UHGV virus genome: UHGV-0465656 | Direction: 5' to 3' (one strand) | Origin: a virus | Length of the DNA stretch: 39,758 nt | Shown: positions 2,790 through 28,395 of the stretch, piece by piece | Numbering within the stretch: the stretch's first letter is position 1 | Layout of the letters: each line of letters begins with the position of its first letter | The notes under the pieces: model-generated | Seen by the model: only the letters and a program-made list of their open reading frames with translations | The model's database searches: none | Told to the model about the DNA's origin: nothing | Translations under genes and position numbers: made by a program

Positions 2790-3701
2790 ATGGACCAAAC
2801 CACCGACATTCAGGCTTCTGAAGAATTAACCCTGCCCGGCAATCATGCAGCGGCATCTGCTGATGGCTTAGTTGTCGATAATGCCAACGACAACGCAGGT
2901 CAGGAAGAAGGCTTCGAGATTGTCCTGAAAGACGATGAGAAACCAAAACAAGACCCGGCAACTAATGCTGAATTTGCCCGTCGCCGCATCGAACGCAAAC
3001 GCCAGCGTGAGCTTGAGCAGCAGATGGAAGCGGTTAAGCGTGGAGAGTTGCCGGAGCACCTGCGGGTGAACCCTGAGTTACCAAAACAACCAGACCCTAA
3101 CGATTATCTTTCCGAAGATGCACTGGCTAAGTACGACTATGACCAGAGCCGCGCACTGGCTGCCTTCCAGCAGGCAAACAGTGAATGGCAGATCAAGGCT
3201 ATGGACGCACGAAGCCAGGCTGTAGCAGAGCAGGGCCGCAAAACTCAGGAGTTCACCCAGCAATCAGCGCAATACGTCGAGGCAGCCCGTAAGCACTACG
3301 ACGCAGCGGAAAAGCTCAACATCCCTGACTATCAGGAGAAAGAGGATGCATTCATGCAACTGGTGCCGCCAGCAGTCGGTGCCGACATCATGCGCCTCTT
3401 CCCGGAGAAATCCGCTGCTCTCATGTATCACCTTGGTGCTAATCCTGAGAAAACACGCCAGTTGCTGGCGATGGACGGGCAATCCGCGCTGATTGAACTC
3501 ACTCGACTGTCAGAACGTTTAACTCTCAAGCCTCGAGCCAAGCCTGTTTCAGAAGCCCCGTTACCTGATGAACCAATTCAGGGACACGCTGTTGCTGCAA
3601 ATATCTCTGCGATTGAAAAGCAGATGGAAGCGGCAGCAAACAAAGGGGATGTAGAGACATACCGCAAGCTCAAGGCGCAACTGAATAAAGGAATTCGATA
3701 A
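2790..3701 (+). CDS. Scaffolding protein (P22 gp8-like, 303 aa)
   Basis: Position between portal and coat; length identical to P22 gp8; conserved block [42 protein letters not shown]. Confidence 0.9.
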
Positions 3702-19945: not shown

Positions 19946-20105
19946 CTTGGTGTTCTTTCAGTTCTTCAATTCGAATATTGGTTACGTCTGCATGTGCTAT
20001 CTGTGCCCATATCATCCAGTGGTCATAGCAGTCGTTGATGTCCTCTGCTTCGATAACTCTGTTGAATGGTTCTCCATTCCATTCTCCTGTGACTCGGAAG
20101 TGCAT
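19938..20105 (-). CDS. Small hypothetical protein (55 aa)
   Basis: Reverse-complement translation MHFRVTGEWNGEPFNRVIEAEDINDCYDHWMIWAQIAHADVTNIRIEELKEHQAA; below ORF-track cutoff. Confidence 0.4.
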   Translation of the reverse strand: MHFRVTGEWNGEPFNRVIEAEDINDCYDHWMIWAQIAHADVTNIRIEELKEHQAA

Positions 20106-20185
20106 TTATCATCTCCATAAAACAAAACTCGCCGTAGCGAGTTCAGATAAAAGAAATCCATCAATTGGTTAGGGTTTTTGTAATT

Positions 20186-20377
20186 CTACGAATTATGTTG
20201 TTTTTTAGCTTCATCTTTCCATTCATCAAAGGCAGTGTCTTTGTTCATGGTGCTGATATTGATCTTACGGTCAATATCATATACACGCCACTCACCGTTA
20301 GGCCTCTCTTCGCATCTAACTAAGTATGAATTGCCATTAATATCTATGCGTCTGTCTATTTGCATGAACATTTTCAA
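20186..20377 (-). CDS. Hypothetical protein (63 aa), AT-rich
   Basis: ORF track; no motif recognised. Confidence 0.4.
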   Translation of the reverse strand: MKMFMQIDRRIDINGNSYLVRCEERPNGEWRVYDIDRKINISTMNKDTAFDEWKDEAKKQHNS

Positions 20378-20487
20378 TTTTCGAATCCTCTTTAATATGC
20401 ATTTTTGCTATTTCAGTAGTTTACTATTGATGAGGCGTTATTATACACACTTCATTAATGCAAGCATCTTTATGCTATGCTACTAAT

Positions 20488-20769
20488 TTAGCAATTGATA
20501 TTCACCTTTATCGCGTATACCTTTACCGGCTTATCACCGAAGTGGGGGTGTGTGATTGTTTTCACTTCATATCCTCCATACGGAACATCAATTCTGCGAC
20601 TGGAGTCGTCGCGCTTCGGATATCCCTTTGTGATAATCAGGCGGTCATACTCCCGGAACATAATTCGCTTATTCCAATAGTCATTACACAGGCGATACTC
20701 TTCCGTTTTCTCTCCTCGAATCATGGCATCGAAGTATTCACCTTTGACGGCAAGTTGCAGGTTAGCCAT
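20488..20769 (-). CDS. Hypothetical protein (93 aa)
   Basis: ORF track; overlaps upstream gene stop. Confidence 0.45.
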   Translation of the reverse strand: MANLQLAVKGEYFDAMIRGEKTEEYRLCNDYWNKRIMFREYDRLIITKGYPKRDDSSRRIDVPYGGYEVKTITHPHFGDKPVKVYAIKVNINC

Positions 20770-21064
20770 GGTTAACCTCCTGCGGAGTAGCCTTTACAAG
20801 CACTGGTGTAAATCCATCTTCATTAAGGTTATGAATATAGACTTCCGTTCTCCTGCGCTCTTCAGCGTTTAATATGGTTTCTGGATCATAAACCCATACT
20901 TTCATTCGACTATTCCATGAAGAAATCGCTTCAGATTTAGTTCGTTTTTCTGGTCCTTGGGCACCACATTTGCATGACACATAGCGCATTTCCCCTCTGA
21001 TACTGAATGAGTATCCGATGTTAAGCACAGTGGAACCACAGAATGGGCAGCGATATAGATTCAT
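20762..21064 (-). CDS. Lar-family-like zinc-ribbon protein (putative restriction alleviation)
   Basis: N-terminus MNLYRCPFCGSTV..CKCG..SSWNSR, the CPFCG..C.CG pattern recalled for the Lar family. Confidence 0.55.
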   Translation of the reverse strand: MNLYRCPFCGSTVLNIGYSFSIRGEMRYVSCKCGAQGPEKRTKSEAISSWNSRMKVWVYDPETILNAEERRRTEVYIHNLNEDGFTPVLVKATPQEVNHG

Positions 21065-23636: not shown

Positions 23637-23830
23637 TTTTTCCCACTCCGAAACATCGCATTCAGATATTTGTTGTCATTAACAGAACCGAAACTCTTTC
23701 TCTTAAGCAATTCCTCTCTCGATAGCATTGGCTTTACGCGTTGGCGAATAATCATTTCTGCCGGAAGAATGCCGGGATTGTATGCAAGTCCTCTCATGGT
23801 AAATTCCTCAGTCATTACTGATAGCGCCAT
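23633..23830 (-). CDS. Hypothetical protein (65 aa)
   Basis: ORF track. Confidence 0.4.
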
Positions 23831-24104
23831 AGCGTGAGCGGTAATTACGCAGGCGCGGGTCGATATATTCAGGGAATTTGTCTATTGTCGCTTTTCGCAA
23901 CGGTCGCATTGCTGTTTCGTTTGTTCGGTCCCTCTCATCTTTTAACGCGAGCTGTATATCGCGTCGGTACATCCGTTCTGCTTTTGTTTCTGGTGGCAGA
24001 GCAAGAAACGCGTCGAAAATGTTTTTGATATTTTCCAGCACCTCCGACTTGGAGCTACCGGAGCAGTTGCGCGCGTCGTCCGCACCATACAGAGGCGCTG
24101 GCAT
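23808..24104 (-). CDS. Hypothetical protein (98 aa)
   Basis: ORF track. Confidence 0.4.
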
Positions 24105-25217: not shown

Positions 25218-25376
25218 TTATGGCGATACCAGAGAGCTTTCTGCGTGTACATGCGTCTCTGTAACTTGCTCTCCTTCACTGTGGTTGCAAGTGACATGAA
25301 TATCTCCTTCGTTACCGATTAAATCTTTCATCTGACGAATGAATTCTTCGTCTGACCAGTTATCTGTAAAACTCAT
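25218..25376 (-). CDS. Hypothetical small protein (52 aa)
   Basis: MSFTDNWSDEEFIRQMKDL..; ATGA overlap with cIII-like stop. Confidence 0.4.
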   Translation of the reverse strand: MSFTDNWSDEEFIRQMKDLIGNEGDIHVTCNHSEGEQVTETHVHAESSLVSP

Positions 25377-25543
25377 GGGCGGCCTTGTTGTTTCAAAATA
25401 TCCCAAAGCTTTTCGAGCAAGCTTTTCATTCTTGGTTGTTTAAAGTCTGCTCCGGTTAAAATATTTTTTCGTGAATGCTGTACCGATAAAATCGGGTTGA
25501 AAGGGCGAACCGATGCCGCCCCTGCAATAGCGAACTGTTGCAT
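25373..25543 (-). CDS. cIII: cIII-like protein (56 aa; FtsH-inhibitor family)
   Basis: MQQFAIAG..KSLLEKLWDILKQQGRP versus recalled lambda CIII MQYAIAG..ESLLERITRKLR..ILNQPGVP; AGGAG upstream. Confidence 0.6.
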   Translation of the reverse strand: MQQFAIAGAASVRPFNPILSVQHSRKNILTGADFKQPRMKSLLEKLWDILKQQGRP

Positions 25544-25776
25544 AGGATGCTCCTTCTGTTTTATTGCATAACGAAAACGCCTCGAATGAAGCGTTATTGG
25601 TATGCATATAAAAAGGCCCTCACACTGGAGGGCAAAGAAGATTTCCAATAATCAGAACAAGTCGGCTCCTGTTTAGTTACGAGCGACATTGCTCCGTGTA
25701 TTCACTCGTTGGAATGAATACACAATGCAGTATTTATTCTGTTGTTTATGCCAAAAATAAAGGCCGACTATGCTTC

Positions 25777-26247
25777 CTAGTAGAATACCCAATTTTCTGT
25801 TTCTTGGTTGTGTCCAAAGTTATATTCAATATCTGGTGTTGATGTATCAATATTCTTCATCCCATCAACAAGAGTTGATACAACAGCCAAATCTTGTTTG
25901 ATTCTCATTAAATGGTATTTCTTCCGGCGCAATAAACTCTCAATGGCAAGTTTCTTCGTTGGGAATGCAAAAGATCTTTCTGCATTTTTTGCTACTTTCT
26001 TAATTGCATATCTATTTCTCCTTTGTTTCCATTCCTGTAACCACTGATTTGGTGCTGGTTTAAAATCAACAATCCAATGCGCAGGAACCAACCATGCATA
26101 ATGCTCTGTCTGATGAAAAGCTATATATTGAAGTGCGAATATTTTGATTCCATCTTCTTCAACTGTCGCTTGGAATCTCCAGAAAACAGGCATTCCATCA
26201 TGTTCAGTTTCTGATTCAGGAAAAGGTACGCTCCATGATTTTGTCAT
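25777..26247 (-). CDS. Hypothetical protein (156 aa), AT-rich, in the ral/sieB position downstream of N
   Basis: ORF track; 8-bp gap after N; composition contrasts with flanking genes. Confidence 0.55.
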   Translation of the reverse strand: MTKSWSVPFPESETEHDGMPVFWRFQATVEEDGIKIFALQYIAFHQTEHYAWLVPAHWIVDFKPAPNQWLQEWKQRRNRYAIKKVAKNAERSFAFPTKKLAIESLLRRKKYHLMRIKQDLAVVSTLVDGMKNIDTSTPDIEYNFGHNQETENWVFY

Positions 26248-26255
26248 ATCTCACC

Positions 26256-26582
26256 TCAAATAAGTGGCTTGCTGCCTAATTTCATTTTCTGGCGACCAAC
26301 ACAAGTCACACCCATTTCACTGCGTGGCTTGCTGTACCATGTGCGCTGATTCTTGCGCTCAATACGTTGCAGGTTGCTTTCAATCTGTTCGTGGTATTCA
26401 GCCAGCACTGTAAGGTCTATCGGATTCAGTGCGCTTTCTACTCGTGATTTCGGTTTGCGATTCAGCGAGAGAATTGGGCGGTTAACTGGTTTTGCGCTTA
26501 CCCCAACCAACAGGGGATTTGCTGCTTTCCATTGAGCCTGTTTCTCTGCGCGACGTTCGCGGCGGCGTGTTTGTGCATCCAT
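26256..26582 (-). CDS. N: Antitermination protein N (lambda type)
   Basis: MDAQTRRRERRAEKQAQWKAANPLLVGVSAKPVNRPILSLNRKPKSRVESALNPIDLTVLAEYHEQIESNLQRIERKNQRTWYSKP.., almost identical to recalled lambda N. Confidence 0.92.
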   Translation of the reverse strand: MDAQTRRRERRAEKQAQWKAANPLLVGVSAKPVNRPILSLNRKPKSRVESALNPIDLTVLAEYHEQIESNLQRIERKNQRTWYSKPRSEMGVTCVGRQKMKLGSKPLI

Positions 26583-26850
26583 CTGGATTCTCCTGTCAGT
26601 TAGCTTTGGTGGTGTGGTGGCTGGTAGTCTAGCTCCAGCTTGTTGAGTCTCATTCGGAGGGGTATAACCGGCACCCCAGCGATTTTTCCATGCGACAACG
26701 TGCGCGTTATGGCGGCCTTATCGCCCGCGGCTCCCCATCTCGTCCACGCTATTGCTAGCGTTGGGAGTGCTTCACCGCTCAACAGTAGGTAAGCACTTGC
26801 CAGTGACTAGCTGGCTTCACCACACCCCAAAGCCTTCTGCTTTGAATGCT

Positions 26851-26881
26851 GCCCTTCTTCAGGGCTTAATTTTTAAGAGCG
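26851..26881 (-). promoter_or_regulatory. nutL (boxA CGCTCTTA and boxB GCCCTGAAGAAGGGC on minus strand)
   Basis: Reverse complement of 26851..26881 is CGCTCTTAAAAATTAAGCCCTGAAGAAGGGC, the lambda nutL arrangement. Confidence 0.9.
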
Positions 26882-26925
26882 TCACCTTCATGGTGGTCAG
26901 TGCGTCCTGCTGATGGCTTAAAATT

Positions 26926-26993
26926 ACAAGAAAGATTGTATGTTGTAAACAAGAAATATTGTAAAAAGGGGCATGAAAAACAAACTCCATTGT
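26926..26993 (-). promoter_or_regulatory. OL/PL region with three 434-type 14-bp operators (ACAAGAAAGATTGT 26926..26939, ACAAGAAATATTGT 26949..26962, ACAAACTCCATTGT 26980..26993)
   Basis: ACAA-N6-TTGT operators read directly, upstream of nutL. Confidence 0.7.
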
Positions 26994-27042
26994 TTTTAAA
27001 TGAAAAATAGTTTGTTTTTGGTTATCGAGATTGAGGTGGGGA

Positions 27043-28395
<1,353 letters not shown>

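Follow-up and report, generated by a model that had tools for sequence, protein, structure and literature searches.

In the lambdoid phages, an accessory slot lies between the antiterminator gene N and a conserved boundary sequence, and in lambda and Sf6 this slot holds ral. The ral gene of lambda lies beyond the terminator tL1 and needs N, and SieB of lambda and P22 is a membrane protein encoded next to N with its own promoter in lysogens. Here we analyzed the corresponding locus of the UHGV virus genome UHGV-0465656, a DNA stretch of 39,758 nucleotides (nt) that is called the window below. The window represents a mosaic HK97-like lambdoid phage with HK446, HK544 and HK97 as its best matches, and its slot is occupied by a single open reading frame (ORF) of 156 amino acids (aa) placed directly behind N:

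25777..26247, − strand: 156-aa ORF with an ATG start, the equivalent of HK97 gp45, 933W ST933Wp19 and phi24B vb_24B_11c (PHROG 1636)
26256..26582, − strand: lambda-type antiterminator gene N, 108 aa, beginning MDAQTRRRERRAEKQAQWKAAN (Pfam PF11438, N36, E=1.5e-26)

The nearest described counterparts of the ORF are found in HK97 (gp45), 933W, phi24B and H-19B, which share with it the same protein, length, ribosome-binding junction and downstream boundary, all directly after N. The ORF of the window follows an intact lambda-type N, whereas in HK97, 933W and H-19B the gene follows another N type plus a 58-nt relic. In HK97 and 933W (extracts L001 and L002, each 2943-3000), this relic of a lambda-type N 3′ end lies between the phage's own different-type N and gp45, and it is identical to the 3′ end of the intact N of the window. 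From this relic it follows that the cassette was first linked to a lambda-type N and was later relocated by recombination inside the 3′ end of N. A further difference is that the window keeps 39 nt of boundary sequence that have been lost from HK97 and 933W.

Lambda Ral resembles the ORF product in its location in the same slot, between N and bsq4/tL2a, and both are small soluble accessory proteins not needed on permissive hosts. However, Ral has 66 aa and is rich in Cys, whereas the ORF product has 156 aa, another predicted fold and no sequence similarity to Ral; unlike lambda ral, the ORF also precedes the first predicted terminator. A tblastn search of the window with the Ral proteins of lambda and Sf6 gave only chance matches (E > 1), none of them in the ORF, so that ral is absent from the whole window. 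As regards SieB, which was compared through a Pfam-A scan and not directly by sequence, the ORF protein differs in lacking a hydrophobic segment, in matching no Pfam family and in that we found no promoter specific to its gene. With Ocr of T7 the likeness is one of functional analogy alone, in that a single-gene, non-enzymatic product is made first in infection, the timing expected of counter-defence. Ocr is an acidic DNA mimic, whereas the ORF protein is basic (isoelectric point (pI) 8.8, and 10.5 in its centre) and shows no similarity to a solved structure.

The original prediction, made from the sequence of this stretch alone, had described an AT-rich 156-aa ORF of foreign composition immediately downstream of N, in the "ral/sieB slot", and had proposed a host-takeover, anti-defence or exclusion function. 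Position, composition and slot all agreed with the ORF list, the composition scan, the Pfam match of N and the lambda and Sf6 arrangement. The base composition of the ORF is foreign, with a G+C content of 36.5% (28.7% at third codon positions, GC3) against a window mean of 47.8% (standard deviation 4.0 among 471-nt windows), and just 0.6% of such 471-nt windows are equally AT-rich. Only 8 nt lie between the N stop codon TGA (26258-26256) and the ATG of the ORF (26247-26245). A Shine-Dalgarno sequence, GAGGTGA (26251..26257, − strand), overlaps the N stop codon and ends 3 nt before this ATG, and alignment showed the ribosome-binding junction to be identical in HK97 and 933W.

By tblastn, the ORF protein is 98.7% identical to HK97 gp45 and 99.4% identical to 933W ST933Wp19 (NP_049479) over 156 aa, and the ORF is present in 83 phage records. 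Carriers also include phi24B (vb_24B_11c), H-19B, where the gene is unannotated, BP-4795, Min27 and many phages encoding Shiga toxin (Stx) 1 or 2. Among 5426 complete Escherichia coli genomes, 598 (about 11%) contain the gene in up to four copies per genome, annotated throughout as "hypothetical protein", and in 593 of the 598 it is intact. Homologues with 55-85% identity were found in Pectobacterium, Brenneria, Rosenbergiella, Cronobacter and one Salmonella phage. The profile of PHROG 1636 ("unknown function") matched the ORF protein with E=7.2e-112, residues 1-156 aligning to profile positions 1-156 of 156. The ORF is thus the HK97 gene 45 of this phage and not a new sequence.

Further profile searches of 1.84 billion cluster representatives returned 87 proteins at E <= 1e-3, mostly of 130-155 aa, and a tblastn search with a distant family member added relatives in Pseudomonas and Vibrio phages. 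Two large proteins with repeated weak profile matches (P0059 and P0081) were discarded as spurious, being repetitive surface-type proteins. All 77 members of the deeper alignment match PHROG 1636, many of them also match phrogs 13631, 25384 and 28215, all with function unknown, and no credible Pfam domain was found in any aligned family member. The original prediction had recognized no motif in the ORF, and the Pfam, NCBIfam and PADLOC searches likewise gave no match: a Pfam-A scan at E <= 1 returned a chance zinc-finger match alone, and the sole match in PADLOC-DB, Cas1_II, was at chance level (E=0.018, 12.4 bits).

The ratio of nonsynonymous to synonymous substitution (dN/dS) was 0.03-0.09 in all pairs with unsaturated dS. 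These comparisons show that the ORF truly encodes a protein and that purifying selection on it is strong. The annotation of the ORF in every source merely as "hypothetical protein" might suggest a non-functional sequence, either a chance ORF or a decaying remnant. Because of the conservation data, that explanation can be set aside as extremely improbable: the protein is conserved over its full length, with 55-99% identity across several genera of Enterobacterales and 40 invariant columns, the dN/dS is low, the Shine-Dalgarno sequence is strong, a wider family of 87 cluster representatives exists, and the predicted fold described below is both confident and recurrent.

As the original prediction had proposed, the slot was compared across related phages, and its content was found to vary, also where two phages agree in immunity region and N type:

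lambda (imm21 hybrid record): ral
Sf6: gene 36, ral and gene 34
HK446 (immunity region and N type as in the window): one unrelated gene, encoded on the opposite strand
window: the 156-aa ORF alone

Judging from this comparison, the slot is hypervariable, flanked by the N 3′ end and the bsq4/tL2a boundary, and the ORF is a one-gene AT-rich cassette within it. Defined in this way, from the N 3′ end to bsq4/tL2a, the slot is a place from which further accessory genes can be harvested. The slot gene of HK446 (extract L013, 2939-3933) encodes 164 aa and matches phrog_1244 (unknown function), and an 82-aa gene of HK446 just beyond the terminator matches phrog_14587, annotated "anti-restriction protein". 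Anti-restriction genes thus recur in or beside the slot, as ral and as phrog_14587 in HK446. Gene 34 of Sf6 was considered as a distant relative of the ORF and rejected (hhalign probability 0.3%). Of the elements that define a classical "moron" in the sense of Juhala et al. (2000), the ORF has the foreign composition, lying in the lowest 0.6% of windows. A promoter of its own was not found, the gene abuts N, and the terminator behind it belongs to the shared boundary and not to the cassette. Another gene of the ral accessory region, orf184, triggers gop-beta-cII (Silas et al., bioRxiv 10.1101/2023.04.06.535777). The ORF is not orf184, whose model file starts MEALVVERSEDGYWT and represents a different protein.

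To describe the expression of the ORF, the early-left region was read from the operators down to the next gene:

26926..26993: left operator oL, formed by three 434-type operator 14-mers (ACAA-N6-TTGT) with exact matches at 26926, 26949 and 26980
26851..26881, − strand: nutL, read from the sequence, with boxA CGCTCTTAA at 26881-26873 and the boxB hairpin GCCCTGAAGAAGGGC at 26865-26851
25607..25633, − strand: intrinsic terminator GCCCTC-CAGTGT-GAGGGC with a T-run (stem 25633..25616), homologous to lambda tL2a by terminator scan and alignment
25576..25595, − strand: second terminator-like hairpin, common to HK97 and not present in lambda, Sf6 or 933W
25373..25543, − strand: cIII-like ORF, 56 aa, tentatively assigned from a position matching that of HK97 cIII

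The early-left promoter pL is a predicted site within or adjoining the oL operators, its exact hexamers not being fixed. A matching operator trio lies at the right operator oR (28108-28166), and the cI and cro ORFs of the window are recognizable as phage 434 types. The boxB stem was also flagged by a hairpin scan, and this lambda-type nutL is presumably identical to that of lambda. A consensus scan of 25300-27100 found no intrinsic terminator on the − strand from 27100 down to the ORF stop, and the first two predicted on the pL transcript (25633..25616 and 25595..25576) both lie past the ORF. The 8-nt junction between N and the ORF is too short for a terminator. The ORF should therefore be transcribed with N once pL is derepressed. 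It is probably co-expressed with N as an immediate-early gene, before antitermination is needed, at infection or induction, and it is probably translationally coupled to N. The original prediction had called the gene N-dependent; this was not supported, since there is no predicted intrinsic terminator, or room for one, between oL, N and the ORF, and the first, the tL2a-homologous one, comes after the ORF. No sigma-70-like promoter was found on the − strand inside N or upstream of the ORF in a consensus scan, which is insensitive as it also missed pL. The next gene of the operon after the ORF is probably the cIII-like ORF, with its ATG at 25543, which shows weak similarity to CIII of lambda and HK446 and no Pfam match.

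The ORF protein is computed to be soluble, with a mass of 18.6 kDa and a pI of 8.8. Its N- and C-terminal parts are acidic while its centre (residues 61-135) is very basic, with a pI of 10.5, and no membrane segment was detected (maximum 19-residue Kyte-Doolittle mean 0.56). AlphaFold run with the 77-sequence alignment gave a mean predicted local distance difference test score (pLDDT) of 95.7 and a predicted template modelling score (pTM) of 0.83, with all five models above 91; a model from 22 close homologues reached a pLDDT of 55 and was not used. In the predicted topology, three long antiparallel strands (19-55) are followed by two short helices and by a short hairpin region of basic character (83-95), after which come a helix of 33 residues (98-130) and an ordered tail at the C-terminus. 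The original prediction had proposed a remote homology and structure search, and this search led to uncharacterized phage relatives and not to a characterized homologue or solved fold. Foldseek against the PDB gave a best E of 1.1, and profile searches of PDB sequences returned coiled-coil noise alone. In BFVD, 12 fold relatives were found at E <= 1e-3 with query-normalized TM-scores of 0.44-0.65, all of them uncharacterized phage proteins, including those of the N4-like phages phiAxp-3 and Delftia RG-2014, Erwinia phiEa2809, and Cellulophaga, Rhizobium and Sinorhizobium phages. Some of these phages are virulent, among them phiAxp-3, Delftia RG-2014 and phiEa2809. The spread of the fold among phages, beyond the temperate ones, argues for a role in lytic growth. 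According to the model, the ORF protein is a confidently predicted alpha/beta fold without a solved analogue.

Outside the close clade, the conserved features are the hydrophobic core, Gly33, Glu/Thr at 46-47 and Ala101. Basic residues are conserved at positions 24, 75, 76, 83, 84, 87, 92, 98, 108 and 109, and more weakly at 117 and 118, and the family alignment contains no conserved Asp/Glu/His set of the catalytic kind. Given the conserved basic positions and the lack of a catalytic-type set, the protein is read as a binder and not an enzyme. From the conserved charge, we infer that it works by binding, the likeliest target being nucleic acid or else a host complex in which nucleic acid is handled. 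The DNA-binding fold of AP2 or of the lambda Int N-terminus, suspected from the motif "RFAFxTKEEA", was rejected on hhalign probabilities below 1% and no structural match.

Further analysis of genomic context showed that the relatives always lie in early, co-oriented gene strings, at variable positions. The close family yielded six species-level loci for this comparison. In E. coli phages the gene adjoins N, and in Pectobacterium and Brenneria prophages the homologue lies just upstream of xis-int with an intrinsic terminator before it. In the Pectobacterium odoriferum prophage (extract L010, 3945-4000), the terminator GAGCCGC...GCGGCTTTTTTATT and then a Shine-Dalgarno sequence precede the homologue. 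In this lineage, in contrast to the window, its expression would depend on antitermination or on a promoter that escaped detection. In Salmonella phage NX263 (extract L004, 3001-4298) and E. coli phage Bas81 (extract L014, 3441-4738), a homologue with 63% identity is the first gene of an operon diverging from the structural genes, and it is directly followed by a gene with ParB helix-turn-helix (HTH) and KorB domains, a pairing confined to that lineage. The homologue of Vibrio phage PvVp04 precedes a Rha regulator gene, several contigs carry distant homologues near Lar, MT-A70 or other DNA methylase genes, and in Pseudomonas phage Skulduggery the homologue is about 1.7 kb from a gene annotated as DarB-like antirestriction. 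One marine phage contig has the homologue as a lone opposite-strand gene among structural genes. A conserved partner gene was sought and rejected, because the ParB-HTH gene accompanies the homologue in the NX263/Bas81 lineage alone and the other neighbours are unrelated; the ORF protein would therefore act alone.

The reading we favour, speculative and with a probability of roughly 0.3, is that the ORF encodes a non-enzymatic binder acting in early counter-defence. It would be transcribed and translated with N as soon as pL fires, and its product would bind nucleic acid or a host complex handling nucleic acid without enzymatic activity. This binding would neutralize a host barrier directed at the phage DNA during the first minutes of the lytic cycle, so that the ORF would be a positional alternative to ral while being neither a Ral homologue nor a DNA mimic. 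Counter-defence is ranked first because of the timing, a patchy distribution with horizontal movement, the anti-restriction genes in the slot and in the neighbourhoods of relatives, the stand-alone nature of the gene, and its presence in temperate and virulent phages. With about the same probability, the PHROG 1636 family might form a class of stand-alone immediate-early effectors with a new fold and a mechanism undescribed so far; as one example, a basic protein could either block a host immune sensor or protect phage nucleic acid from it.

Several points weigh against counter-defence. The phage already holds candidate counter-defence genes, namely a Lar-family restriction-alleviation gene close to the far end of the early-left operon (20762-21064, − strand, Pfam PF14354, E=7e-9) and an ORF that we take to be Abc2-like (23808-24104, − strand). 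The Pfam, NCBIfam, PADLOC, PHROG and PDB searches revealed no sequence or fold similarity to a characterized defence, anti-defence or regulatory protein, and nucleic-acid binding is a property that we infer from conserved charge alone. The protein is basic, whereas DNA-mimic anti-restriction proteins are acidic, and a dN/dS of 0.03-0.09 is low for a gene engaged in an arms race. The argument from neighbouring genes carries little weight, since early regions of any kind commonly contain methylases and the like. As for timing, a Rho-dependent terminator, invisible to a sequence scan, may lie upstream of or inside the ORF. A literature search on HK97 gp45, vb_24B_11c, phrog_1636 and the peptide sequence found no relevant paper and no characterization, and the ORF sequence is absent from the supplements of bioRxiv 10.1101/2023.04.06.535777 and PMC12373910.

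The same binder profile could serve other ends. The ORF product might regulate phage development by binding phage or host DNA or RNA, and as a partner of N from the immediate-early stage it would tune transcription, the lysis-lysogeny decision or replication. We consider this rather doubtful, although it is in keeping with a basic surface preserved throughout the family, with co-expression with N, itself a regulator, and with the ParB-HTH gene that follows the homologue in NX263/Bas81 and the Rha gene that does so in PvVp04. The lambdoid programme can dispense with the gene, which is present in 83 records against 327 with the same flank, and its operon position varies, adjoining xis-int in Pectobacterium and Brenneria; no HTH or known DNA-binding fold was found, the AP2/Int-N idea was rejected, and the palindrome adjacent to the gene is neither specific to it nor repeated elsewhere in the window. 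A comparably doubtful explanation is a host-takeover factor that, like Kil or T7 Gp2, would favour lytic growth by binding and inhibiting a host housekeeping machine (that of replication, transcription, the nucleoid or division) and that would be toxic alone. Immediate-early timing, a non-enzymatic binder profile and fold relatives in virulent phages would suit such a factor, as would repression in the lysogen, the gene being behind oL/pL with no promoter of its own found. However, no similarity to a known host-shutoff protein was detected, lambdoid phages manage without the gene, and its intactness in 593 of 598 E. coli carriers is easier to square with a harmless or useful gene.

Among host takeover, anti-defence and exclusion, the three functions named by the original prediction, exclusion is the least likely. 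As a prophage exclusion or abortive-infection gene, the ORF would act like sieB, its expression in the lysogen blocking other phages, and its N-proximal position, where sieB lies in lambda and P22, its moron-like AT-rich composition, its good maintenance in E. coli prophages and the lone opposite-strand homologue in the marine phage contig are all consistent with that role. We nevertheless regard it as improbable, given that the protein has no membrane segment (maximum hydropathy 0.56) and no Pfam SieB or PADLOC match, that neither N nor the sequence ahead of the ORF revealed a sigma-70-like promoter in the scan, that the gene is co-oriented with N, translationally abutted to it and placed behind repressor-controlled operators, and that fold relatives occur in virulent phages.

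The ORF represents one of the most widespread uncharacterized early genes of E. coli lambdoid prophages and is present in the classic Stx phages 933W, H-19B and phi24B. Judged by the anatomy of the locus, its product is made along with N, ahead of all else encoded on the left arm. A confident model without a solved analogue and a clean one-gene cassette make it an easy experimental target. If counter-defence, or host takeover, proved true, the gene would offer a new protein fold and mechanism and could have consequences for the induction biology of Stx phages and for their host range; should no phenotype appear, it would be one more conserved phage gene of unknown function.

Downstream of the ORF, the original prediction had described a 128-bp gap with an imperfect 9-bp inverted repeat. 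A gap does follow the ORF, yet the 128 bp end at a mechanical TTG-start ORF, and the distance to the ATG of the cIII-like ORF is 233 nt. The repeat lies where it had been placed, and its description was too weak, because its arms are 12 nt long with one mismatch and a 4-nt loop. The elements of this region are as follows:

25608..25772, − strand: conserved lambdoid boundary sequence (~165 nt), with homology to "bsq4" of Sf6 and to the sequence after ral in lambda
25696..25723, − strand: hairpin with a 12-bp stem and a 4-nt loop, the inverted repeat of the original prediction, inside the boundary sequence

Alignment with lambda, Sf6, HK97 and HK446 showed that the lambda/Sf6 homology starts about 5 nt past the ORF stop and runs for ~165 nt through the hairpin to the intrinsic terminator. 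The counterpart of this sequence follows ral in lambda and gene 34 in Sf6. The Sf6 record annotates "bsq4; boundary sequence" and a "terminator, homology to phage lambda; tL2A", and the HK97 record has a putative terminator at the tL2a-type site. A 136-nt core of the boundary was found in 327 phage records, four times the 83 that hold the ORF, and most of these records lack the ORF; the repeat therefore belongs to a conserved module boundary and not to the ORF. The boundary sequence is 90-99% conserved in the 327 records regardless of the preceding gene, with copies for example at 2472-2640 of extract L017, 2013-2134 of L018 and 3472-3600 of L001 (HK97).

The mismatch of the repeat becomes a G.U pair in the − strand RNA, and the RNA around the repeat folds at z scores of -3.6 to -4.7 against shuffled sequences, with none of 200 shuffles as good. 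The boundary RNA as a whole adopts a very stable multi-hairpin predicted fold (z = -4.7) with the terminator at its end. Besides marking a recombination boundary, the sequence could thus yield a processed 3′-end RNA. An Rfam search of the intergenic region found no family, and the known prophage small RNAs AgvB/AsxR and PasA-D map elsewhere. The repeat was also considered as an operator for the ORF product and rejected, since the window contains no further half-sites beyond chance, the repeat is not conserved beside diverged homologues, and it is part of the boundary shared by the 327 records.

Elsewhere in the window, the only other patch that is equally AT-rich (about 35.5% G+C) lies at 20030-20500, between xis-like and Lar-like genes. 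It contains a 63-aa ORF (20186-20377, − strand) with no Pfam match, and it may be a second accessory insert of foreign origin. An ORF at 27043-27450 (− strand) occupies the rexAB position, lying downstream of cI and ahead of oL; it has a signal-peptide-like N-terminus and matches phrog_2651 (unknown function), which makes it a candidate for a secreted protein or lipoprotein expressed in the lysogen.

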